A stretch of 19,912 bases of DNA from a bacterium. GTDB lineage: Bacteria > SZUA-182 > DTGQ01. The notes under the pieces were generated by a model. It ran no database searches. It saw only the letters and a program-made list of their open reading frames with translations, and had not been told where the DNA came from. Shown here one piece after another: positions 2,756 through 19,912 of this stretch (the first letter of the stretch is position 1; each line of letters opens with the position of its first letter). Made by a program: the position numbers and the translations under genes. Where the stretch lies: NCBI GenBank assembly GCA_040752695.1, contig JBFMGO010000111.1:1-19912 (forward strand), written 5' to 3'.

Positions 2756-3613
2756 TTGGATGCGAAATCCTGGACCCCGTACGGGCTTGCTCTTCTTGAT
2801 TTCCTGAACGGCAAGACCGCAGCACAGATCATTGTCCATGAAGCTGATGGAAGAAAGAGGAAGATGCCGGCAAGCACCTTTTTTCGGACTCCTCCGGAGT
2901 TTCCGCTTTTGGAAAGTACCGCCCTAAGCCTCTGCCGGGGCCGTGTCCTTGATATTGGCGCGGGAGCCGGATGCCATAGTCTCGCCCTCCAGGAGCAGGG
3001 TTTTTCGGTATGTGCCATCGATATCTCTTCAAAAGCAGTGGAAGTTATGAGGATGCGGGGAGTAAAAGAGGTTTACTGCACTGATATCTTTAACTTTAAA
3101 ACAGAAAAGCCATTTGACACGATTCTCATGATGATGAATGGCATAGGAGTAGTCGAAAACCCTGATGCCCTCGGTCTTTTTCTGAATAGTGCTCACAGCC
3201 TGCTTAGATCGGGGGGACAGATCCTGCTGGACTCTTCCGATATGAGGGATACCGCCAGGAATGTCACGCCTTCAGGTCTGTTATCCTATCCAGACTCTAA
3301 GCAGCAGGCATCGGCTCAACAGGCATCAGACCGGCAGGCACCGGCTCAACGGGCATCGGACCAACAGGCATCGGACCGGCAGGCACCAAGTCAACAGGCA
3401 TCAGACCGGCAGGCATCGAATCAACAATCGGGCCGGTATATTGGAGAGGTAAAGTTTCAGATGGAATATAAGGGGAAGAAAGGGTCCCCCTTTTGGTGGC
3501 TGTTTGTCGATCCCGATATGCTCACGGAGAAAGCCTCAAAAGCAGGTTGGTCCTGCGAGGTCATCTACCGGGAGTGGGATGGGCACTACCTGTCCCGGCT
3601 GCTTTCCCTTTAG
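2756..3613 (+). CDS. Class I SAM-dependent methyltransferase with an in-frame repeat insertion
   Basis: Motif I VLDIGAGAG, AIDIS, FDTILMMMNGIG, LRSGGQILLDS; TTG start with AGGAGG at 2741-2746. Confidence 0.9.
   Translation: MDAKSWTPYGLALLDFLNGKTAAQIIVHEADGRKRKMPASTFFRTPPEFPLLESTALSLCRGRVLDIGAGAGCHSLALQEQGFSVCAIDISSKAVEVMRMRGVKEVYCTDIFNFKTEKPFDTILMMMNGIGVVENPDALGLFLNSAHSLLRSGGQILLDSSDMRDTARNVTPSGLLSYPDSKQQASAQQASDRQAPAQRASDQQASDRQAPSQQASDRQASNQQSGRYIGEVKFQMEYKGKKGSPFWWLFVDPDMLTEKASKAGWSCEVIYREWDGHYLSRLLSL
3302..3421 (+). repeat. 8 x 15-bp coding tandem repeat ([QR][QR]A[SP]x pentapeptide)
   Basis: CAACAGGCATCGGAC-like units encoding QQASA QQASD RQAPA QRASD QQASD RQAPS QQASD RQASN. Confidence 0.9.
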
Positions 3614-7993: not shown

Positions 7994-8701
7994 CTAGTTA
8001 GTCCCAGTTGAGATTTCCTGCAGTTTCCCCAGTTCCTGGAAGCCTAAAATGGCATTTCCGCCATTCTTTTTTACCTGGTATAGGGCTTTGTCTGCAAAGT
8101 CTATGAGTTGTCCAGGAGAAAAAACCTGGTCATCCGGAATTGAGGCCAGGCCAATGCTTATCGTAATATGGGTACTTATGCCATTATATCGGAACAGGTA
8201 GCAGGTGATCCGCTCCTGAATCTTCTGAGCGATTGTGAAGGCCCCCTGATAGCCGGTATTCGGGACGAGAATGCCGAACTCGTCTCCGCCATACCGGGCT
8301 ACAATATCCGTTTCTCTCAGCGGGTGCCTGAGCATGTATCCTAATTTTTTTAATACAAAATCACCGAACCGATGACCGTAGGTATCATTAATTGATTTGA
8401 AATGGTCTACATCCAGCATGATACAGGTTAGAGGCTCTTTATACCGTCTGGCTCGTTTGAATTCGATGTTTAATCTTTGGCGAAGATGCCGGTAATTAAA
8501 CAATCCGGTCTGGCCATCGCGGGAGCATTGCCTCTTCAATTTCTTAATGAGGGTATTGAGCTCATTATTTACTTTCATCAACTCGTTATTCAAGATTACG
8601 TAGTTCAAGTACTTAATCAGTAACTGCTGATAATCAAAAACTCGAAGAGGGAAAGAGTTCTTTTCTTTTTGCTTACTTAGCTCTATTTCCAAACTGCTCA
8701 T
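7994..8701 (-). CDS. Diguanylate cyclase (GGDEF domain) with an N-terminal coiled coil
   Basis: DGQTGLFN, MLDVDHFKSINDTYGHRFGD, I-site RETD, intact RYGGDEF, TISIG, ADKALY. Confidence 0.93.
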   Translation of the reverse strand: MSSLEIELSKQKEKNSFPLRVFDYQQLLIKYLNYVILNNELMKVNNELNTLIKKLKRQCSRDGQTGLFNYRHLRQRLNIEFKRARRYKEPLTCIMLDVDHFKSINDTYGHRFGDFVLKKLGYMLRHPLRETDIVARYGGDEFGILVPNTGYQGAFTIAQKIQERITCYLFRYNGISTHITISIGLASIPDDQVFSPGQLIDFADKALYQVKKNGGNAILGFQELGKLQEISTGTN

Positions 8702-8737
8702 GCATACCTCTCCATTCGGTAAATCATCGCAGATATC

Positions 8738-9145
8738 CTATCTGGTGCGTTTCTTCTTCGGGTGACATCCATCGCAACGCGTTGGCCCTGTTGGCTTTCC
8801 CTCTAGCTTTAAGTTGCTGTGGCAACCTCTGCATCTATTCATGTAAGCATCCCTAAGAGGGATCCCCTCTCCATTTTGTCCTGCATGGCAATCACTGCAT
8901 TTACCTGGTATTTTGGTCTCTGTCTGGTTCCATTCGTGATGACAGGCCTTGCAGGCAATAGAAAGATCGAGAGCATGCCCTCCGTGGTCAAACTGAACCC
9001 CTTCATAAATATCCGTTCTATAGGTCCCTTTATCAATGAATATCTTCTCTGGCATATTTTGACCACTGGCCCGGCTCTGTATTCCAAAACAAATAACTAC
9101 TAAACACAATATCGTCCATAACCATGCACTTCGTTTACACCCCAT
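8738..9145 (-). CDS. Periplasmic tetraheme class III cytochrome c (cytochrome c3-like); likely start MGCKRS at 9145
   Basis: Signal peptide, VQFDHGGH, four heme motifs CKACHH, CSDCH, CRGCH, CDGCH, and GPTRCDGCH at the end; GAGGAG upstream of the ATG at 9145. Confidence 0.92.
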   Translation of the reverse strand: MGCKRSAWLWTILCLVVICFGIQSRASGQNMPEKIFIDKGTYRTDIYEGVQFDHGGHALDLSIACKACHHEWNQTETKIPGKCSDCHAGQNGEGIPLRDAYMNRCRGCHSNLKLEGKPTGPTRCDGCHPKKKRTR

Positions 9146-9281
9146 CTCTCTCTCCTCATCTTGTCTTGAGCCTTTCTCAAAAAAAACGGCCAATGACAAG
9201 ATCTTAAGCCCCCATCCTTAACCTGTCCCCTCTAACTATGCTTTGCCTATTTCATATTGACTTCAGCTTGTCCTTACAAAG

Positions 9282-10916: not shown

Positions 10917-12161
10917 TCAAAAGCTGCGCATGCGATTGTGCTGATTTCGATCGATTGAATGCCTTGGTTTTCCTTTCTTTTTCTGAGATATGGCATCCTG
11001 ATACAGATTAATTAATATCTGGTAGTTCTTTTCACTCGTATATTTTTCTTCATATTCTGTTCTGGCCTTTTCTCTCATCGATGTCAAAATATCCCGGTTT
11101 TTCCAAAGCCATGAGACTTTCTCTGCCAGCCCCAAAGCATCCCCGGTGGGAAAGAGGCATCCGCTGGTGCCGTCGATCACCAGGTGTTCCATCCCTCCCA
11201 GATCACTGGCAATTACGGGAACTCCATAGGCATAGGACTTGATAATGGTAGTTGGGAAGGTTTCATAGGATTCTTTTGGGAAAACAAGCAATAAGGCGTG
11301 GGACAGATGATGCATACAGTCCTCCTTGGACTGCCAGCCTAAAAAGCTTATGTTTGCATTATTGGAGCAGACATCGAGCACGTCCTGCTTGAGCGAGCCA
11401 TCCCCCAGGATTCTCAAGGGAATATCGGGAAGAGAGGACCAGGCACTCAGGAGCGTGCGAATTCCGTTTTCTTCAGTAAGCTTTCCGAGAAAGAGAACAT
11501 AATCTTCAACCTCTCTTGATTCAAGCAGTCCTTCATCACTCAGATGGGGTTTCACGACCACTTTATGATCTGGAAATCCATAGTCGATCAGCCGGTCCTT
11601 AATGAACCGGGTTGGGACGAGATAATAATCAATGCTTCCATGGTGAGCTTTTTGGCTCCAGTGATCTCTGATCATTTTCACGACGTCTACTGTCTGGGGT
11701 TGATTATCCCGGCAGCATTTTTGCTGCTCATCTCCTTTCAATAGTGCTTGTTTCATGCATGAAATGCACAGTTTGTTCGAATAAAAGAGGGTTGATTTTG
11801 GGCACAATGCTTCATATCGGTATAAACTCTGAATGAGCGCGATATCCAATTTCTGACAGGCGTTGTACAGAGACGCAGATTCCATCGAGGTTGCATTATA
11901 GATATGGACCACGTTCGGATGGTGTTTGTGTATCAGTTGGATGACCGGAGAAGATGACCGGTCTCGCCAGTTGTTGTGCCTTCCTTGCAGATGCGGGCTT
12001 TGCGGCATGTGGTACCTGACGATAGTATCGTTTTTTTTATTTTCCTGCCCAACGCAAATTATCCGGTGGCCATTTTTTCTCAATAGCCTCTTATCAGCTT
12101 CAGCAACCCAATCTTTCCCTCCCTGCGATTGAACATCATGACATACTTGCAAGATCTTCAT
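10917..12161 (-). CDS. GT4 (GT-B fold) glycosyltransferase, divergent; likely start MKILQV at 12161
   Basis: MKILQV..GG N-terminus, VLFLGKLTEENGI, ILGDG, FLGW, YETFPTTIIKSYAYGVPVIASDLGG, VIDGTSGCLF. Confidence 0.85.
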   Translation of the reverse strand: MKILQVCHDVQSQGGKDWVAEADKRLLRKNGHRIICVGQENKKNDTIVRYHMPQSPHLQGRHNNWRDRSSSPVIQLIHKHHPNVVHIYNATSMESASLYNACQKLDIALIQSLYRYEALCPKSTLFYSNKLCISCMKQALLKGDEQQKCCRDNQPQTVDVVKMIRDHWSQKAHHGSIDYYLVPTRFIKDRLIDYGFPDHKVVVKPHLSDEGLLESREVEDYVLFLGKLTEENGIRTLLSAWSSLPDIPLRILGDGSLKQDVLDVCSNNANISFLGWQSKEDCMHHLSHALLLVFPKESYETFPTTIIKSYAYGVPVIASDLGGMEHLVIDGTSGCLFPTGDALGLAEKVSWLWKNRDILTSMREKARTEYEEKYTSEKNYQILINLYQDAISQKKKGKPRHSIDRNQHNRMRSF

Positions 12162-12425
12162 GTTTGGACTCTCCGGTATATTTTGCACATTACAACCAAG
12201 TCAGAGATCAATGAGCTACCCACTGGATCTACGAATAACTTTTTCAGGTTTTGATTGTGCGCAGGTTTATATAATTAATATAAAAGTTAGATACATAATT
12301 TATGTAGATACATCGGTGGGATAACTTAAAATACGCTACGAAAAATTTCGGGTCCCAGCGGAATTTATGGTAAGCTGGTTAACGTAACACCAATAACGAG
12401 ATCCTCGAAATGAAATGGAAAACCT

Positions 12426-12733: not shown

Positions 12734-12815
12734 ATCCCAAGACCTCATTTCAGATGAACGGTTTCACCTGTGGCCGGGATGAACGGTTTCACCTGTGGCC
12801 GGGAGGTTTGGGGAT
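12734..12815 (-). repeat. Hairpin immediately 3' of the 12821 gene, whose loop contains an exact 2 x 25-bp tandem duplication
   Basis: ATCCCAAGACCTC / GAGGTTTGGGGAT arms; GATGAACGGTTTCACCTGTGGCCGG at 12753 and 12778. Confidence 0.7.
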
Positions 12816-12820
12816 GGCCA

Positions 12821-13399
12821 CTAAATCAGCGGTAGTAAGCCAGTGAGCCCAGGGAGAACTGCTGTTGTAGTAGGAAGGAGAGCTGTAGGAACAATGGCAG
12901 TAGGAGCGAGTGCAGGAGGTACAAAGGCCGTCGTTGTCGTTGAAATCGTAAGGGTTTGAGTATAAGGCTTCGTGGTCGCTGCTGCGACGGACAATAGTGC
13001 CGGCAGGAGCAGGGCAAGTGAAGTGGGAGCTACAGTCGGAGCAGGGACTAACGCTGCCGTTGGCGCAACCGCAAGTCCGGTAAGAGGTATGGCACTGACA
13101 TTTACTACAGACAGTGCGGGATTAAAAATAATAGTGATGGTCGCTGCCGCGTTTCTCACTGGCCTGGCAGCCATTGGAGCAAGAAGAGGTTGTGGAAGAG
13201 CAGTTTGGAGAGGGGGCATGCCTAATGGCCAGGGTGCAAAAGGTAGCGGTGGATAAAGGGGGGGGACTGGGGGTGCATAGAAAAAAGGTGCCCGGGCTCC
13301 AAAAGCTCCTGGAAATGTTAACATCTGAGCTTTTCCGGAACTGACTGCGAATAACATAATTGCTGCTGTTATAAAGAGTAATGAGATCCACTTTCTCAT
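12821..13399 (-). CDS. Secreted Pro/Ala/Thr/Leu-rich protein with no acidic residues (array family A)
   Basis: AAGGAGG SD; signal peptide ending SGKA|Q; FFYAPP Pro-rich segment; RNAAAT motif; no D or E in 192 aa. Confidence 0.85.
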   Translation of the reverse strand: MRKWISLLFITAAIMLFAVSSGKAQMLTFPGAFGARAPFFYAPPVPPLYPPLPFAPWPLGMPPLQTALPQPLLAPMAARPVRNAAATITIIFNPALSVVNVSAIPLTGLAVAPTAALVPAPTVAPTSLALLLPALLSVAAATTKPYTQTLTISTTTTAFVPPALAPTAIVPTALLPTTTAVLPGLTGLLPLI

Positions 13400-13452
13400 T
13401 TTGGGTTTCCTCCTTCATGGTAATGTATCCTGGGGTTTTTAAAAAAATGTTT

Positions 13453-13533
13453 TTAATGAATAGTTGGGCCGTAAAAGCTAAATAGTAATAGTAGGGGATG
13501 TTCTCCTCTTCCATCTCCAATAGAGACTTTCAT
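13453..13533 (-). CDS. Possible 26-aa small ORF (MKVSIGDGRGEHPLLLLFSFYGPTIH)
   Basis: Perfect extended SD AGGAGGTGAT just before the ATG; fills the gap between the sulfatase-TPR gene and the 12821 gene. Confidence 0.3.
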   Translation of the reverse strand: MKVSIGDGRGEHPLLLLFSFYGPTIH

Positions 13534-13555
13534 GTATCACCTCCTGTTGCGAAAA

Positions 13556-16500
13556 TTAAAATGTGGTTAATCCGGAGTGTTGATAACTCTCCTGTTGTCT
13601 AATGACATCCATAAGCGCTCGGGCTTGCGTGTTGTCCGGCTCAAGTCGGATGATCTCGCTTAATTCTTCCAGTGATTCCCGGTAATTTCTCTGATACATG
13701 AGTGCCAGAGCCAGGTTATAATGAATTTTCGTGTTCTCAGGGGATATCTTTTTCGCTTTTTGCCATGCTTCTTTTGCTTTTTCAAGATCTCCCTGGCGGT
13801 AATAGGCAGTACCCATATTGATCAATGCCTCCGAATGTGACGGGGCTTTGTCAAGGATCTTCTGCCACGACCGGATTGCCTCTTCAATATTTTCCTGTTT
13901 CAGATAGGCAGTGCCTATGTGGAGGTAAGGCTCTTGCGCATTTGGATCAATCTCGATGACTTCTCTCCAGAGGGAAATGGCTTGTGGATATTCTGATGCC
14001 TGAAAGTGGACAGCAGCTAAATTCATCAGTGGTGTGGTATCGCGGGGGGCAAGCCGATGGGACTCCTCCCATTCTTTTATCGCCTCTTGTGCCCTGCCCA
14101 ACTCGTCATAGAGGATGTGTCCCATGAGCTGATGCGCTTCCAGGTTATCCGGGTCGATCTCCACCGATTTTTTAAGGTTGAAAAGCGATTTTTCAAAGGA
14201 CCGCAGGTTGGAATAAGTCTTCCCTAATGAAAGATAGATATCCGCTCTGGCCTGTCCTGTTTTCAGTGCAGATTCGAAGGGAGCAACCGCAGCTTCATAT
14301 TCTCCCAGCGTAAAGCAGGTGAGGCCAAGGTAGTTCCATGCATCCTGGTTGTCCGGGAAAAGTCTGGTTGCCTGCTGGTATTGCTCCTTAGCCTTGGCCA
14401 GTTCGCCCTCTTTAAAATAGATCGTTCCCAGATTGACGAACGCCTCTGAATAGGCCGGTCTTATCGCAAGAGCTTTCTTAAAAGCATCTTCAGCCTTGTC
14501 ATATGAACCTTGCGCCAGATAGAGACTGCCGATATTGTTAAGGGTTTCCGGTCGGTTGGGATCGATCTCAACGGAATGCAAAAACTCCCTGAGCGCCTCG
14601 TCCAGCATGGCTTTTCGGAAATAGACCACTCCCAGATTATTGTGTGCCTCGAGGTGTTCAGGCGTAATCTGCAATACCTTCTGAAAATCTGCACTTGCTT
14701 CTTCCATATCTCCTTTTTCAAGGGCTATTTCGCCTAAAAGATTGAGTGCATCACTATGGTTAGGATCAATCTCGATGGCTGAACGCGCGGATGAAATGGC
14801 CTCGTCGATAAGCCCCATCTCTTTGTAAGTCGTACCCAGGTTATAGTAGACATCGATGTACTCGGCCTCTTTCAAGGCTATCTTGAACTCTTTTACCGCA
14901 TCTTCGAATTTCCCCATTTCATGATAGACGACTCCAAGATGATTGCGAGCGTCCATGTAGCCAGGCTGGAGAGATAAAACGCGGAGGAAACTTTTATGGG
15001 CCTGTTCGAACTTTCTCATTTTTTCCTGTATGCAGCCAAGGTAGAAGAAAGCTGAGACATTTTCCGGGCTGGCTTCCAAAATTTTTTCAAACTCGCTCTC
15101 GGCAAGTTCATAGGACCCGAGGTAATAATAAGAAAGCCCCCGGTCGATCCTCTCAATCAGTTGAACCATATCCTTTGGGTCGGGTCTTTTTTTAACCGCT
15201 TCGGTATCCTTTTGGACCATGCGAAGGTAGCCCAGGCTTTCAAGCCGACGCAAGACGGCCTCGTCCTTTATCATGCCTGACTCTTTTTTTCCCTTCTGGA
15301 GTTTTTCCTCAAGGCCGGACAGCTTTTTTTCCCACTCCAGGGCAAGCTGAGGCTGATCCGACAAGAGATTCTTTTTTTCAAGGGGATCTTCCGACAGATG
15401 ATAGAGCTCGGACCTGGGTGCCTTGACATATTTCCAGTCACTTGTTCTTATCCCTTCGATTTTGCTCCACCCGAAATTAAGTTCCGGATAGAGAGTTTGG
15501 CAAAAGATTTCCTGATGAAGGGGTTGACTTTCCCCTCCGAGAAGGGGAACGAGACTTTTGCCAGGCAACTGGTCGATAGGGACAGCGCCGGGCTGAAGAG
15601 AAAAAAGATCCATAATGGTCGGGAAAATGTCCAGAGTGGTAACCATCGAGGTTATTTTTGTTTTTGCCTTTTGAGACGGAATGAGCCCGGATGGAGCGCT
15701 CATGATCAAAGGAACATGGAGAGTTGAATCATAAATGAAAATGGTATGCGTAGGCTCATTATGCTCATATAAGCCTTCGCCATGATCAGCGGTCAGGATG
15801 ATGAGCGTCTTGTCCGATACTCCCATTTCCTTTAATCCATGGAACAAATCTCCAATGCATTTATCAGTATATGCAATTTCACCATCATAAAGGCGTTGTT
15901 TATATTCTTCCTTGAATGGAGAGGGGGGAAGATACAGAGCATGGGGGTCGAAATAATGAACCCAGAGGAAAAAGGAATGGTTATGATTTCCCTTTAGCCA
16001 TCGCAAGGCGGATTGCGTTACTTCTTCAGCCCTTCGTTCGCTATCCAACGGCCCTGCAACTCTGTTTTTTCTGGGAAGAGAGTCATCATATAAATCGAAG
16101 CCCTGATCAAGACCGAATATGGAATCCAGAACATAGGCACCGACACAGGCACCGGTAAGATACCCCTTCGATTTCATGACCTCTGCAAGAGTGGTTATCT
16201 TTTCTCCCAGAATGAAAGTTCCGTTGTTCATGACGCCGTGTTGAAGTGGATACAATCCGGTCATGATCGAAACATGAGAGGGTAAGGTGATCGGCACCGG
16301 AGTGATGGCCTGAGTAAAGAGGATTCCTTCTGACGCCAGGGCATCGATAGCCGGGGTATTCACATCCTGATAGCCATAGCACCCGAGGTGATCTGCCCGC
16401 AGGGTGTCTATGGTAATGAGAAGAAGGTTATAGGATGGTTTTTTTGGTTCATGAACTGCGGCCCCTGCTGCTGGCGTCGTAGAATTTATCAATGACCATA

Positions 16501-16579
16501 GAAGTGGCAAGACCGATAAAAAGGAACACAGAAGAAGGAATGATGATGATCGCTTAGCTTGGCATTTTCTCTTTTGCAT
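13556..16579 (-). CDS. Exported sulfatase-like (alkaline phosphatase superfamily) hydrolase/transferase with a long C-terminal TPR array
   Basis: LLITIDTLRADHLGCYG, PITLPSHVSIMTG, WVHYFDPH, YDGEIAYTD, TADHGE, RLESLGY linker, then roughly 14-15 TPR repeats; N-terminal signal/TM. Confidence 0.92.
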   Translation of the reverse strand: MQKRKCQAKRSSSFLLLCSFLSVLPLLWSLINSTTPAAGAAVHEPKKPSYNLLLITIDTLRADHLGCYGYQDVNTPAIDALASEGILFTQAITPVPITLPSHVSIMTGLYPLQHGVMNNGTFILGEKITTLAEVMKSKGYLTGACVGAYVLDSIFGLDQGFDLYDDSLPRKNRVAGPLDSERRAEEVTQSALRWLKGNHNHSFFLWVHYFDPHALYLPPSPFKEEYKQRLYDGEIAYTDKCIGDLFHGLKEMGVSDKTLIILTADHGEGLYEHNEPTHTIFIYDSTLHVPLIMSAPSGLIPSQKAKTKITSMVTTLDIFPTIMDLFSLQPGAVPIDQLPGKSLVPLLGGESQPLHQEIFCQTLYPELNFGWSKIEGIRTSDWKYVKAPRSELYHLSEDPLEKKNLLSDQPQLALEWEKKLSGLEEKLQKGKKESGMIKDEAVLRRLESLGYLRMVQKDTEAVKKRPDPKDMVQLIERIDRGLSYYYLGSYELAESEFEKILEASPENVSAFFYLGCIQEKMRKFEQAHKSFLRVLSLQPGYMDARNHLGVVYHEMGKFEDAVKEFKIALKEAEYIDVYYNLGTTYKEMGLIDEAISSARSAIEIDPNHSDALNLLGEIALEKGDMEEASADFQKVLQITPEHLEAHNNLGVVYFRKAMLDEALREFLHSVEIDPNRPETLNNIGSLYLAQGSYDKAEDAFKKALAIRPAYSEAFVNLGTIYFKEGELAKAKEQYQQATRLFPDNQDAWNYLGLTCFTLGEYEAAVAPFESALKTGQARADIYLSLGKTYSNLRSFEKSLFNLKKSVEIDPDNLEAHQLMGHILYDELGRAQEAIKEWEESHRLAPRDTTPLMNLAAVHFQASEYPQAISLWREVIEIDPNAQEPYLHIGTAYLKQENIEEAIRSWQKILDKAPSHSEALINMGTAYYRQGDLEKAKEAWQKAKKISPENTKIHYNLALALMYQRNYRESLEELSEIIRLEPDNTQARALMDVIRQQESYQHSGLTTF

Positions 16580-16610
16580 TTTGGGGATACCTCATTTACC
16601 CAGTAAGAAA

Positions 16611-16699
16611 TTCCACATAAGTCTAAAGTCTCGGTATGATTTTGGATACTCGGCAGGTCAGCTATCCGGCTCATACCAAAACTTTTAGACTTATGGGAA
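16611..16699 (-). other. Long imperfect hairpin (89 nt) between the beta-domain gene trio and the sulfatase-TPR gene
   Basis: TTCCACATAAGTCTAAAG / CTTTTAGACTTATGGGAA outer arms; GGTATGA/TCATACC and GGATA/TATCC inner arms. Confidence 0.65.
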
Positions 16700-16739
16700 G
16701 TTAACTCATAAATAACAACACTTCTTACGCAATACAGCC

Positions 16740-17468
16740 TTAAATAAGTGTCACATTGAAGACACCGTAATCCAATATCGTGCCTCCCGATGTACCAACT
16801 ACCGTGTAAGTACCTGAGATGGTGGTTGGGGAAGTAAGAACACCATCGAGGTAAATATTATACCCGGTACCTAAAAATCCGCTTAAGCTGATCGAATTAT
16901 TTGCCTCTACACCAACTACATTGAACAGGATGTCTGCATACCGGCTTCCCTGAAGAGTGCCGGTACCGGTAACATTTCCCAGTACCGGGTCTACCACGAT
17001 GTTTAAGCTCATCGGCCCTGTATGCCACAGTACAACAAAGGCTATGTAGTTACTGGTCCATGTGCCGATCCAGCTCCCTGTCTGGGCTGCTGTGCGCATA
17101 GGAAGACCAGCAGCAACTGTTGTGGGAAGAGCGGGTACCGGAACAGCAGAGCTTATAGGCAGCGGCGGCAGCAGTGTGCTGACAGGCGGCAGTGGGCCGA
17201 AGAACATGAGAGCCAAGGGATTGTAGAGCAGGGCAGCACTGAAAGGATCGGGAGAGAGAAAAGGGAAGCTCTCGGTAAAGGGATCATAGGGCAAGAGTGA
17301 AAAGGGACTCATACGGGTAAAGGCATTCGATCGTAAGCCAGGTGCTTCGGCTGCTGCGCCGGCAGGTGAAAGGGTCGGAATCCATGCCTTATTCAAGCAC
17401 AAGCAGCACACCTGGATGCACGCTAACATATAAATAGATAATAAGATATATCTTTTTCCTCTGATCAT
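16740..17468 (-). CDS. Secreted protein with a Pro-rich pro-region and a ~115-aa all-beta domain (array family B, paralogue 3)
   Basis: Signal MIRGKRYILL..; RTAAQTGSWIGTWTS...HTGPMSLNIVVDP...LQGSRY...LTSPTT.SG.YTV...D.GVFNVTL. Confidence 0.88.
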   Translation of the reverse strand: MIRGKRYILLSIYMLACIQVCCLCLNKAWIPTLSPAGAAAEAPGLRSNAFTRMSPFSLLPYDPFTESFPFLSPDPFSAALLYNPLALMFFGPLPPVSTLLPPLPISSAVPVPALPTTVAAGLPMRTAAQTGSWIGTWTSNYIAFVVLWHTGPMSLNIVVDPVLGNVTGTGTLQGSRYADILFNVVGVEANNSISLSGFLGTGYNIYLDGVLTSPTTISGTYTVVGTSGGTILDYGVFNVTLI

Positions 17469-17534
17469 AGCTGAAAATCCTTAAACTTTAGATGACATAT
17501 ATTTTCCAGAGGTTCATGGTAAAATCTCGCATAC

Positions 17535-18161
17535 CTAAATAAGAACCGGCGGAAGAAGTGATAGCTCGAATACCCCTTCATCCAATATGGGAATATGCGT
17601 ACCAGTTACCGTATAGAAGCCTGTCATAGTAGTCGGTGAAGTGAGGAGACAGGTCAAAATGATATCGTATCCTGTAACGAGAAGCCCACTGACCGTAATA
17701 ACATCGTTTATCTTCACTCCCGTAACATCTGCTGGGGCGCTTGCATATCTGCTCCCCTGGAGGATACAGGTGCCGATTACACCCCCCAACAGCGGGTCTA
17801 CAACGATATTTAAAGACATCGGGCCGGTATGAAAAAGGACAATAAAAGGAAGAAAGGTACTTGTCCAGGTACCGACCCAGGTACCGGTCTGAGAAGCCGT
17901 ACGTACCAGGGTTGTGGTCGCGGCAGGTGCGGAAAGCACTGTCGGAAGAACAGGGGCAGGTATAACAGGCGTTAAGGGGCTGACGGCCGCTGTCCTGTAA
18001 AAGCCGGGAGTAAAAACAAGCGGATTAAAGAATCCCCCGTATCCTACGACGGTATTGAGAGCAGTGCCGGTGTATTGAGCCTGGCACGGAGGCAAATAAA
18101 AGAGTGAGGTAAAGATAAAAATCGATATATATAACAAGATATACTTTTTTCCTCTGATCAT
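17535..18161 (-). CDS. Secreted protein, array family B, paralogue 2
   Basis: Signal MIRGKKYILL..PPCQA|Q; RTASQTGTWVGTWTS...HTGPMSLNIVVDP...LQGSRY...LTSPTTMTGFYTV; SD AAGGGTG. Confidence 0.88.
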   Translation of the reverse strand: MIRGKKYILLYISIFIFTSLFYLPPCQAQYTGTALNTVVGYGGFFNPLVFTPGFYRTAAVSPLTPVIPAPVLPTVLSAPAATTTLVRTASQTGTWVGTWTSTFLPFIVLFHTGPMSLNIVVDPLLGGVIGTCILQGSRYASAPADVTGVKINDVITVSGLLVTGYDIILTCLLTSPTTMTGFYTVTGTHIPILDEGVFELSLLPPVLI

Positions 18162-18220
18162 GGCTAAATCACCCTTATGTAAAAAGGTTAATATCTCTCA
18201 CCAATCCTTTCGATGCATGG

Positions 18221-18931
18221 CTATATGATCACCGGTGCAAGGAGGGTCAGGTTGAATGTCCCCTCATCTACAATATCACCTGTAGCGGTTACGGTATAAA
18301 AGCCTGTCATAGTGGTTGGTGAGGTCAGAACACAGGTTAAAACAATACCAAGGCCGAGAGAGGGGATGCCTTCCAGGGAGATGATATTGTTTATTTTTAC
18401 GCCGCTTACGTCAAACGGGGCAGACGTATATCTGCTTCCCTGAAGAATAGCCGTGCCAAGGACACTTCCAAACAGTGGATCTACAACGATATTCAAGGTC
18501 ATCGGCCCGGTATGCCATAGGACAATATAGGCAAGGGAGGTACTTGTCCATGTACCAACCCAGGTTCCTGTCTGAGCGGCGGTACGCGTTACCGTGGTGG
18601 CTGCGGTAGGTACAGGAACCGCTGCCGAAGGAATAGACGGAGAGGTAAAAAGAGATAGTGGCGGGATAACCGGATAATAAATCGGGCTCAATAAAGGACT
18701 AAAAGGAGGATAGATCAAAGCCGCAAAAGGGTCAAAAACAGGATAATAATCAGCAGCTGTTCTCGTTAATCCGGGGAAAAAAGCTAGGGGATTGAAAAAA
18801 TCCCCATATTCTACGGCGGTATTGAGAGCAGTGCTGGAAAACTGAGCTTCACAGGGGGAGCAAATCATGAATAAAGAGATAAAAATAACGCTTAAAGCAG
18901 GGAGAATGATGCCTCGCTTTCTTGTTCGCAT
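18221..18931 (-). CDS. Secreted protein, array family B, paralogue 1 (likely start MRTRKRG at 18931)
   Basis: AAGGAG SD before the ATG at 18931; signal ending SPCEA|Q; RTAAQTGTWVGTWTS...HTGPMTLNIVVDP...LQGSRY...LTSPTTMTGFYTV. Confidence 0.88.
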   Translation of the reverse strand: MRTRKRGIILPALSVIFISLFMICSPCEAQFSSTALNTAVEYGDFFNPLAFFPGLTRTAADYYPVFDPFAALIYPPFSPLLSPIYYPVIPPLSLFTSPSIPSAAVPVPTAATTVTRTAAQTGTWVGTWTSTSLAYIVLWHTGPMTLNIVVDPLFGSVLGTAILQGSRYTSAPFDVSGVKINNIISLEGIPSLGLGIVLTCVLTSPTTMTGFYTVTATGDIVDEGTFNLTLLAPVII

Positions 18932-19062
18932 TGCCAAATCTCCTTCATTTATCGACATAAACCTCTCAAAAACCCATACCTGAATAAGGTGTTAAATTCC
19001 CTTACTGCCTTATCTGATTGCTGTGCATAAAAACATAACGGTAAAGATTCATAAGGTTTCTC

Positions 19063-19100
19063 AATTCCTCAAGATTCAAGAAATTGAATCTTGAGGAATT
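19063..19100 (-). terminator. Perfect 17-bp stem-loop 3' of the 19117 gene (terminator or mRNA-stabilising hairpin)
   Basis: AATTCCTCAAGATTCAA-GAAA-TTGAATCTTGAGGAATT. Confidence 0.7.
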
Positions 19101-19116
19101 AAAGAAATTGCCTCTC

Positions 19117-19539
19117 CTAGAGAGCTAAGCTTGAAAGATAAGCAAAGAGAATCGGATTCGCTACACTTAAGGGAGTAGGTGAATAGAGCGCTTGTGCATA
19201 AAGACTGAGGAGCCCTGCAACAATTGGAGTTACCGTGGCCGTAGGAGTGGTGGTAGTAGTAGGTGCAATTGGAGTGATCGTAACAGTACCTGTTGTCGGA
19301 TTGGTAATAATAAGAGTTGCCGCTGGTGCCCTGGTTATCGGCGCGGATGGAAGAATATAAGGATATGGCGGGTATAGAACAGGAAGAACAGGGACCGGTG
19401 GTAACAGGGGCGGAGCATAGAAATAGGGTACTTGGGACATGCAGTTTGACGAGAAAGTAAAAGTAAAACTCAAACAAAAAAGAGCGATTATAGACAGAAA
19501 AATTAAAAATTTAGGGTTTTTAACTTTTTGCATCATCAT
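19117..19539 (-). CDS. Secreted Pro/Thr-rich uncharged protein (array family A); likely start MMMQKVK
   Basis: Signal ending SNCMS|Q; PYFYAPP; RAPAAT; C-terminus LYAQALYSPTPLSVANPILFAYLSSLAL. Confidence 0.85.
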   Translation of the reverse strand: MMMQKVKNPKFLIFLSIIALFCLSFTFTFSSNCMSQVPYFYAPPLLPPVPVLPVLYPPYPYILPSAPITRAPAATLIITNPTTGTVTITPIAPTTTTTPTATVTPIVAGLLSLYAQALYSPTPLSVANPILFAYLSSLAL

Positions 19540-19557
19540 AAATAACCCTTCCGTCAA

Positions 19558-19912
19558 CTAAATTAATAGCGTTGATAAATAAGCAAAGAGCAATGGATTG
19601 GCCGTAGAAAGAGCAGAATGCGAATAGATTGCACCTGCATACAGGGTAGCCAGAACACCAAGGAGAGGTGCAGGCGCTGCCACAGTCGTTGTTGCTACAG
19701 TGGAAACGACTGTTGGCGCAACGATTGGACTCACTACCGTGGGTGCTCCGATGACTATAGCTCCCGCAGTCGGACTCACTGCCGTAATTCCCGTAGAGAG
19801 AATGATTGTGGCCTGAGGTGTTCTTATAAAGGGTACCGGTGCGAGTGGGAAAGGAAGAAGAGGCGGAGGCGGTGGCAGAAGTGGAACGGGAGCAAAATAA
19901 GGCATAATTGGC
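19558..19912 (-). CDS. Pro/Ala/Thr/Val-rich uncharged protein (array family A), 5'-truncated by the window end
   Basis: Frame is open to the window end (..PIMPYFAP); RTPQAT; C-terminus LYAGAIYSHSALSTANPLLFAYLSTLLI is paralogous to the 19117 protein. Confidence 0.85.
   Translation of the reverse strand, partial: PIMPYFAPVPLLPPPPPLLPFPLAPVPFIRTPQATIILSTGITAVSPTAGAIVIGAPTVVSPIVAPTVVSTVATTTVAAPAPLLGVLATLYAGAIYSHSALSTANPLLFAYLSTLLI

Follow-up and report, generated by a model that had tools for sequence, protein, structure and literature searches.

The window analysed here is the entire 19,912-nucleotide (nt) contig JBFMGO010000111.1 (C111) of a bacterial genome (assembly GCA_040752695.1, G000 below; 6.05 Mb, 96.6% complete). 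Positions 12821 to 19912 of this window carry an array of six small genes for proline-rich, charge-poor exported proteins, together with a gene for a 1007-residue sulfatase-like enzyme with tetratricopeptide repeats (TPRs). We consider, with a probability of roughly 0.55, that these six genes are one cassette of a set of about 110 proteins that would be exported, matured by proteolysis and built into a structural coat or matrix. This reading is suggested by compositional analogy, copy number, modular shuffling and the co-expansion of several components. The comparison covered 12 other genomes of the same order (G001 to G012, which with G000 make 13 genomes from three families) and seven other genomes of the class; two of the components, the barrel and the GGLYGGLY pattern described below, were also searched for in 21 further genomes.

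The six small open reading frames (ORFs) and the 1007-residue gene lie on the minus strand, where a preliminary description of the window had placed them. The Sec-type signal peptide with which it began the layout of the six small genes is atypical in B1, where it is Cys-rich and has no A-x-A-Q site (that of its G002 orthologue is normal). The last gene, A3, is cut by the end of the contig and continues on C113: the ends of C111 and C113 overlap exactly over 31 nt, and the last bases of C113 encode a signal peptide ending in C-Q, in frame with A3. Two more genes of the same type are found on C113 just upstream of A3, so that the array comprises eight small genes plus the enzyme, in the transcription order A4, A3′, A3, A2, B3, B2, B1, enzyme, A1. 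The features are as follows.

12821..13399, minus strand: A1; signal peptide, Gln at +1, Pro/aromatic arm and Thr/Ala/Leu/Pro core; orthologues seen
about 13142-13156: Arg motif of A1, R-N-A-A-A-T
13556..16579, minus strand: exported enzyme; alkaline-phosphatase-superfamily (sulfatase-like) domain at residues 51-413 and about 13 TPRs
about 16274-16288: T-L-P-S-H of the enzyme (residues 98-102), in place of the formylglycine motif
16609..16702: inverted repeat with 19-nt arms between B1 and the enzyme gene
16740..17468, minus strand: B1; atypical signal peptide, Pro/Phe arm, R-T-A-A-Q, and barrel domain at 16743-17096
17535..18161, minus strand: B2; signal peptide, Gln at +1, arm with two R-T-A-x motifs, and barrel at 17541-17903
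18221..18931, minus strand: B3; signal peptide, Gln at +1, and arm with two R-T-A-A motifs
18224-18586: barrel of B3, eight-stranded and streptavidin-like in the predicted model
19063..19100: perfect 17-nt inverted repeat between A2 and B3
19117..19539, minus strand: A2; signal peptide, Gln at +1, Pro/Tyr arm, R-A-P-A-A-T, Thr-rich hairpin and predicted C-terminal helical pair
19558..19912, minus strand: A3, homologue of A2, with R-T-P-Q-A-T; 5′ end and signal peptide on C113
12421..12473: 22-nt inverted repeat, terminator-like, between A1 and a glycosyltransferase family 4 (GT4) gene
10917-12188: GT4 gene, outside the conserved cassette

Likely starts with a ribosome-binding site were recognised at 18931 (B3) and 19539 (A2). 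The six small proteins contain 0.9-8.6% charged residues, compared with about 25% in the two enzymes, and 9-18% Pro. Because the ratio of nonsynonymous to synonymous substitution rates (dN/dS) is about 0.08-0.27 relative to the G002 and G001 orthologues (Nei-Gojobori; a rough estimate, with dS near saturation), these sequences indicate that the six ORFs are real genes under purifying selection and not chance frames. None of the six proteins matched a Pfam or NCBIfam family at E<=0.1, in agreement with the earlier view that they belong to no named family; a comparison of eight proteins with phage coat and other phage proteins was negative but for one weak PHROG match (B2, E 0.004, function unknown), and A1 gave no usable feature match in the atlas. 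The proposed single family A did not survive profile comparison: the hhalign probability is 99.4% for A2 and A3, whereas A1 scores 14.6% and 0.7% against these two and has only the Arg motif in common with them. The fold prediction for A2 is of low confidence (predicted local distance difference test, pLDDT, 62; predicted template modelling score 0.28). Promoter and terminator scans were at chance level (9 vs 11.6 and 10 vs 8.1).

How far does this kind of protein extend beyond the array? Signal peptides were called by eye and by a crude rule, and a crude filter (signal peptide, <9% charged residues, >27% Pro+Gly+Tyr+Thr) gave 113 genes on 55 contigs of G000, about 1.4% of the genome. Removal of four false positives by eye left 109 genes for the terminus and Arg-motif counts, and the full 113 were retained for the enzyme-adjacency, GGLY and genome-fraction counts. 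With about 110 such proteins in the genome, the array is a small part of a genome-wide and order-wide system. The arms of the set are either Pro/aromatic, as in the six genes of the window, or built of GGLY repeats, of which the 113 genes contain 281 (24 genes have at least three). The family-B domain occurs in 26 ORFs of G000, most of them behind GGLY repeats, and a third group, family C, has 27-30 members with a Trp/Pro-rich module. The module of family C, noted at L076 and L167, reads W-x-x-L-P-P-Y-N-x-L-W-P-L-W, and the family matches nothing in Pfam; in G007, a single enzyme gene is flanked on its two sides by ten copies in all. The modules have been shuffled, in that family C is fused to the barrel and up to five barrels occur in one G007 protein. 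A tandem array in the same genome (L051, G007:C12:68000-87999) encodes at least seven charge-poor exported proteins of up to 1026 residues, with one to five barrels each.

Arms of this type are also attached to recognisable domains. Matches among 34 selected proteins that were scanned include three subtilases, a glutaminyl cyclase, a multihaem cytochrome, cohesins, protease inhibitors (I42, BsuPI and alpha-2-macroglobulin) and a polysaccharide deacetylase, and the charge-poor arm proteins include fusions to cohesin, immunoglobulin (Ig)-like and deacetylase domains. Another scan listed 42 ORFs with a charge-free aromatic tract within a larger protein, some of them being membrane-protein false positives. 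The same charge-free arm is borne by a multihaem cytochrome c (L058:3012-4637, on C2 of G000) and by a GGLY protein with a single CxxCH (G000:C1:142128-142883), and these two proteins could tie electron transfer into the proposed layer. Membrane glycosyltransferase-like genes, recognised by eye, adjoin charge-poor exported genes at G000:C5:97789-99273 and C113:11533-12969; it is possible that their products O-glycosylate the Thr-rich cores.

The barrel and the GGLYGGLY DNA pattern were each found in all 13 genomes of the order, in none of the seven others of the class and in none of the 21 further genomes (the reversed control pattern gave 0). Family C (10-65 matches per genome), the Thr-type enzyme (4-13) and a subtilase group (4-10) were likewise present in 13/13 genomes of the order and 0/7 others of the class. 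These five components have expanded together, the subtilases being of the arm-bearing kind. When 1.84 billion representative sequences were searched with the barrel profile, 94 matched at E<=1e-10, about 90 of which are of this type by eye; weaker matches are generic exported barrels. The A2/A3 profile matches 52 proteins, and the named ones are all hypothetical proteins from metagenome-assembled genomes.

The linkage of families A and B to the sulfatase-like TPR gene, proposed from the window, proved to be conserved within the order. The same gene order with the enzyme inside was found in G001, G002, G003, G006, G008, G009, G010, G011 and G012 (three of these nine cassettes are cut by contig ends), so that with G000 an enzyme-containing cassette is present in 10 of the 13 genomes; it also occurs in metagenome contigs. 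An eleventh genome, G007, which belongs to the third family, has a diverged cassette of ten charge-poor genes around three enzyme copies, and no cassette was found in G004 or G005. A second cassette of G000, split over C142 and C21, contains family C genes and the nearest paralogue of the enzyme. The GT4 gene, which had been regarded as a possible partner, was rejected on synteny: a 630-bp gap and the 22-nt hairpin separate it from A1, and among the six other genomes in which that flank is visible, a GT4 gene adjoins the cassette only in G002. At L092/L094, a subtilase adjoins the cassette on the flank where G002 has GT4. In genus g1, the cassette is preceded upstream by a DUF4412 gene, and G007 has one there too, to judge by resemblance (L003:6423-7208, L036:16360-17160, L169:208-972).

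Several features of the sequences point to maturation. First, the residue at +1, assigned by the blind crude rule, is Gln in 52/109 and Tyr in 19/109 charge-poor proteins, and Gln occupies this position in 11% of 675 other exported proteins. Second, 67 of the 109 end in Ile or Leu, compared with 12% elsewhere. Third, Ala is enriched 3.2-fold two residues after Arg, but not after Lys, and the pattern R.[AG].[AVQ] occurs in 32/109 proteins compared with 6.0 in shuffles. The conserved Arg motif noticed in the window is shared by A1 with A2/A3, and neither R nor Q varies among 17 barrels from cassettes; among A2, A4 and A1b members, chosen by other motifs, Arg four residues before Ala or its equivalent is present in 31/31. 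The motif divides an arm of 31-73 residues (25% Pro, 21% aromatic) from a core of 38-109 residues (17% Thr, 16% Ala, 9% Val). From these patterns, we infer cleavage at the Arg motif, together with its site and its protease. Candidate processing enzymes are themselves arm-bearing. Of the 26 subtilases covered, from 30 loci, 25 have a charge-poor extension, and the Asp/His/Ser motifs are intact wherever they were parsed; in 8/13 genomes, a subtilase gene and a barrel gene are no more than 3 kb apart. The glutaminyl cyclase PF05096 is present in 9/13 genomes, where 9 of 11 genes have a charge-poor extension.

The enzyme embedded in the array belongs to the alkaline-phosphatase superfamily (PF00884, E 1e-47; PF01663, E 6e-19). 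It has the sulfatase-like fold and the TPRs of the preliminary description, but the formylglycine signature of sulfatases is missing: T-L-P-S-H aligns with its position in 7oz8, and a formylglycine (S1) sulfatase with [CS]-x-P-x-R was rejected. T, P and H of T-x-P-x-H are invariant in 120/120 homologues, as are the metal ligands H213, D265 and H266, and D58 is conserved in 119/120. The catalytic site is intact, with little or no variation at Thr98, His102 and the metal ligands, and the enzyme is thus probably active, with Thr as its nucleophile, and probably not a classical sulfatase. A Thr nucleophile occurs in NPP, LtaS and EptA. With these proteins and the formylglycine sulfatases, the enzyme shares the sulfatase fold and the D...D-H metal ligands; unlike them, it has T-x-P-x-H instead of [CS]-x-P-x-R and a long TPR tail, and where LtaS/EptA-type transferases, which use a lipid donor, have a polytopic membrane domain, only an N-terminal signal is visible. 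Matches to MamA and other TPR families were set aside as generic TPR matches. No characterised member of the Thr-type family was found.

Is the enzyme linked to the charge-poor proteins outside this cassette? Among the 16 sulfatase-like genes of G000, five have a charge-poor exported gene as a direct neighbour, compared with 3.5% of 2315 other genes; without the window locus, the figure is 4/15 (binomial p about 0.002, with paralogues that are not independent). The corresponding counts are 5/13 in G007 and 4/12 in G004, and, without cassette copies, 3/10 in G002 and 2/6 in G006. In a quick tree of 71 of 73 rows, the cassette enzymes group together (support 94) and are sister to the family-C-linked copies (97 for both). 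Adjacency to a charge-poor gene needs 13 changes on this tree, compared with 22.9 in shuffles, which argues that the link recurs in several branches, although most paralogues are without it. That the enzyme acts on these charge-poor proteins at all we put at slightly under even odds.

The family-B domain is predicted to be a streptavidin-like barrel that behaves as a small generic barrel. Its model has eight strands (pLDDT 88) and resembles avidin-type folds (Foldseek E 7e-5; against streptavidin, VIA Z 13.6 and a root-mean-square deviation of 1.9 over 102 residues at 14% identity), yet scores are equally high for de novo barrels, for Cap15 and for an amine dehydrogenase domain. The atlas returned only unnamed clusters at 0.9. 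Like avidin and streptavidin, the domain is predicted to be an eight-stranded antiparallel barrel; unlike them, it has 26 paralogues behind low-complexity arms. None of 58 barrel domains matched Avidin (PF01382) at E<=1, and no avidin was among the seven PDB sequence matches at E<=10. By sequence, family B is not an avidin, the likeness of fold having no sequence-level counterpart in PDB or Pfam.

How might such a layer be assembled? Sec export and signal peptidase I would leave an N-terminal Gln or Tyr, and the arm-bearing glutaminyl cyclase would cyclise the Gln. The Pro/Gly/aromatic arms would drive self-association of the charge-poor proteins and would also recruit enzymes and other proteins with the same arm (subtilases, the cyclase, protease inhibitors, a cohesin and a multihaem cytochrome). 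Subtilases would then cut between R-x-[AGP]-x and [AVQ], so that hydrophobic cores and barrels are released and become locked into the layer, and the TPR enzyme, in the weakest step of the scheme, would bind charge-poor proteins and move or remove a phosphoryl-type group via Thr98. The resulting coat or matrix would be an insoluble protein structure beyond the inner membrane. In a bolder form, which we advance only tentatively, the whole order would have independently evolved an animal-style structural biomaterial, in which at least 100 exported suckerin- or chorion-like proteins condense via their aromatic low-complexity arms and have dedicated maturation enzymes, namely arm-tagged subtilases, glutaminyl cyclase and TPR-guided Thr phosphotransferases; the arm would be a general address tag that builds enzymes, cohesins and cytochromes into an extracellular, possibly redox-active coat.

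A number of observations weigh against a matured coat or matrix. The 13 genomes are kin, and the distribution is that of one evolutionary origin with long conservation and not of 13 tests. The strict Arg pattern, itself drawn post hoc from these proteins, is absent from 77/109, and the specificity of the subtilases for Arg is a guess from the acidic catalytic domains of the co-expanded members. The cyclase was not found in 4/13 genomes, including G006 (97% complete), and the one cyclase from outside the order also has a charge-poor extension, of 58 residues. The A2/A3 profile has no match in G004, G005 or G007, and second cassette copies in G006, G009 and G012 are without the enzyme. The enzyme family is widespread (7947 matches); 11 of the 16 paralogues in G000 have no charge-poor neighbour, and none of three neighbourhoods, with short flanks, among four matches in the outside genome G037 includes one. 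Finally, searches of G000 for an enzyme that might cross-link Tyr found neither a multicopper oxidase nor a DyP peroxidase, so that assembly would be largely non-covalent or would use another chemistry.

A considerably less probable explanation is that the proteins belong to the envelope and remain in its periplasm or membranes. The arm would then be a sorting sequence or pro-peptide, and the hydrophobic cores would insert into a membrane or line the periplasm, giving a scaffold or fibre within the envelope and not an outer coat. The organism is diderm (BamA is over the cut-off in 5/5 genomes tested), the cassette has no dedicated gene for export across the outer membrane, A2/A3 have a predicted C-terminal hydrophobic helical pair (pLDDT about 65), and A4 ends in a hydrophobic helix. 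However, seven secretins in G000 offer an exit route, and long GGLY tracts and the cohesin, Ig-like and deacetylase fusions are more typical of surface material. We regard as unlikely an organic template (a biomineral matrix of the amelogenin or shematrin kind, with an enzyme handling phosphate esters) or an insoluble protein store. By analogy, the Pro/Tyr/Gly-rich composition and the co-exported proteases, protease inhibitors and phosphatase-superfamily enzyme would suit such a role, but Asp and Glu make up about 1% of the A-type proteins of the cassette, leaving almost no acidic residues that could bind cations; the proteins are nitrogen-poor, and storage needs neither many distinct conserved families nor a fixed gene order. 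Precursors of bioactive peptides (bacteriocin-like, pheromone-like, or of the ribosomally synthesised and post-translationally modified kind, RiPPs), released by a cut at the Arg motif and then modified by the TPR enzyme, would explain a variable arm followed, after a fixed motif, by a conserved core of 38-109 residues (about 40 in A4). This is quite improbable given the fixed order of the orthologues in three families, the purifying selection on them, the same motif in front of folded barrels and within enzyme arms, and cassettes in which no transporter, immunity gene or known RiPP enzyme was seen. Least probable of all is that family B consists of ligand-binding, avidin-like proteins and that unrelated exported proteins are clustered only through duplication in tandem and regulation in common, for the streptavidin fold match (Z 13.6) and the tandem duplication of B1-B3 are offset by the lack of an avidin profile match, an identity of 12-22%, the shuffling of modules between families and the co-expansion of five components.

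Coats and matrices made of protein are already familiar; as judged from sequence comparisons, the structural families here match no described one, and their organisation appears to be new. Silkmoth chorion and shematrins are comparable structural proteins. Squid suckerins, as described in PMC11931252, have Gly/Leu/Tyr repeats including GGLY, and Ala/Val/Thr-rich segments bounded by Pro. GGLY-type repeats and Ala/Val/Thr-rich segments are found here too; unlike suckerins, the present system is bacterial, has no His-rich blocks and includes a folded barrel and an Arg motif, and the likeness, compared by composition and not by sequence alignment, would be convergence. In the Bacillus spore coat, CotT is Tyr/Pro-rich, and the mother cell produces the coat proteins, which have no signal peptide. 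The coat with CotT, CotF and YabG is, like the proposed layer, a multi-gene protein structure, and cleavage after Arg, proposed here, recalls the Arg-directed processing of coat proteins by B. subtilis YabG (PMC13553755); in contrast, the proteins here have signal peptides, and the candidate protease is of family S8. An endospore coat was rejected, Spo0A-dependent sporulation having found no support: Spo0A (TIGR02875) was over the cut-off in 0/5 genomes (control rings, 1/14).

Chaplins, BslA, curli and TasA are small Sec-exported proteins that form hydrophobic or fibrous surface layers. Profiles of chaplin, BslA, curlin, TasA and pilin matched none of the six proteins, 23 A2/A3 members or 58 barrels, and CsgG gave only partial matches, mostly at positions 9-100 of 210; the present system also differs from these layers in its far larger paralogue set and its own co-expanded enzymes. 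The Q-rule of Bacteroidetes likewise combines Gln at +1 with glutaminyl cyclase (PMC5837995, PMC10653852); here, +1 Gln is concentrated in the charge-poor set (48% vs 11%), and the cyclase, PF05096, has its own arm. No description of the system or of the enzyme was found in the literature, most subscription journals and supplements lying outside the search.

Elsewhere in the window, 12753-12802, just downstream of A1, is an exact tandem duplication of 25 nt. A short ORF at 1433-1729 resembles what we take to be a remnant of an IS5-type transposase, a methyltransferase-like ORF recognised by eye at 2756-3613 contains an inserted repeat of the type Q-Q-A-S-D-R, and 7994-9199 encodes a GGDEF protein and an exported class III cytochrome c, whose synteny is kept in G002.

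If the coat or matrix reading is true, these genes would represent a new kind of bacterial envelope or matrix, without homology to curli, chaplins, TasA or spore coats, and the system would define an uncultured order. It would provide natively bacterial, exportable silk-like sequences for biomaterials, and the arm would be a candidate for a condensation tag with which enzymes could be localised. The pieces are small, and neither their expression nor their testing requires the host in culture. For the large family of Thr-type sulfatase-like TPR proteins, the cassette would provide a first substrate hypothesis.

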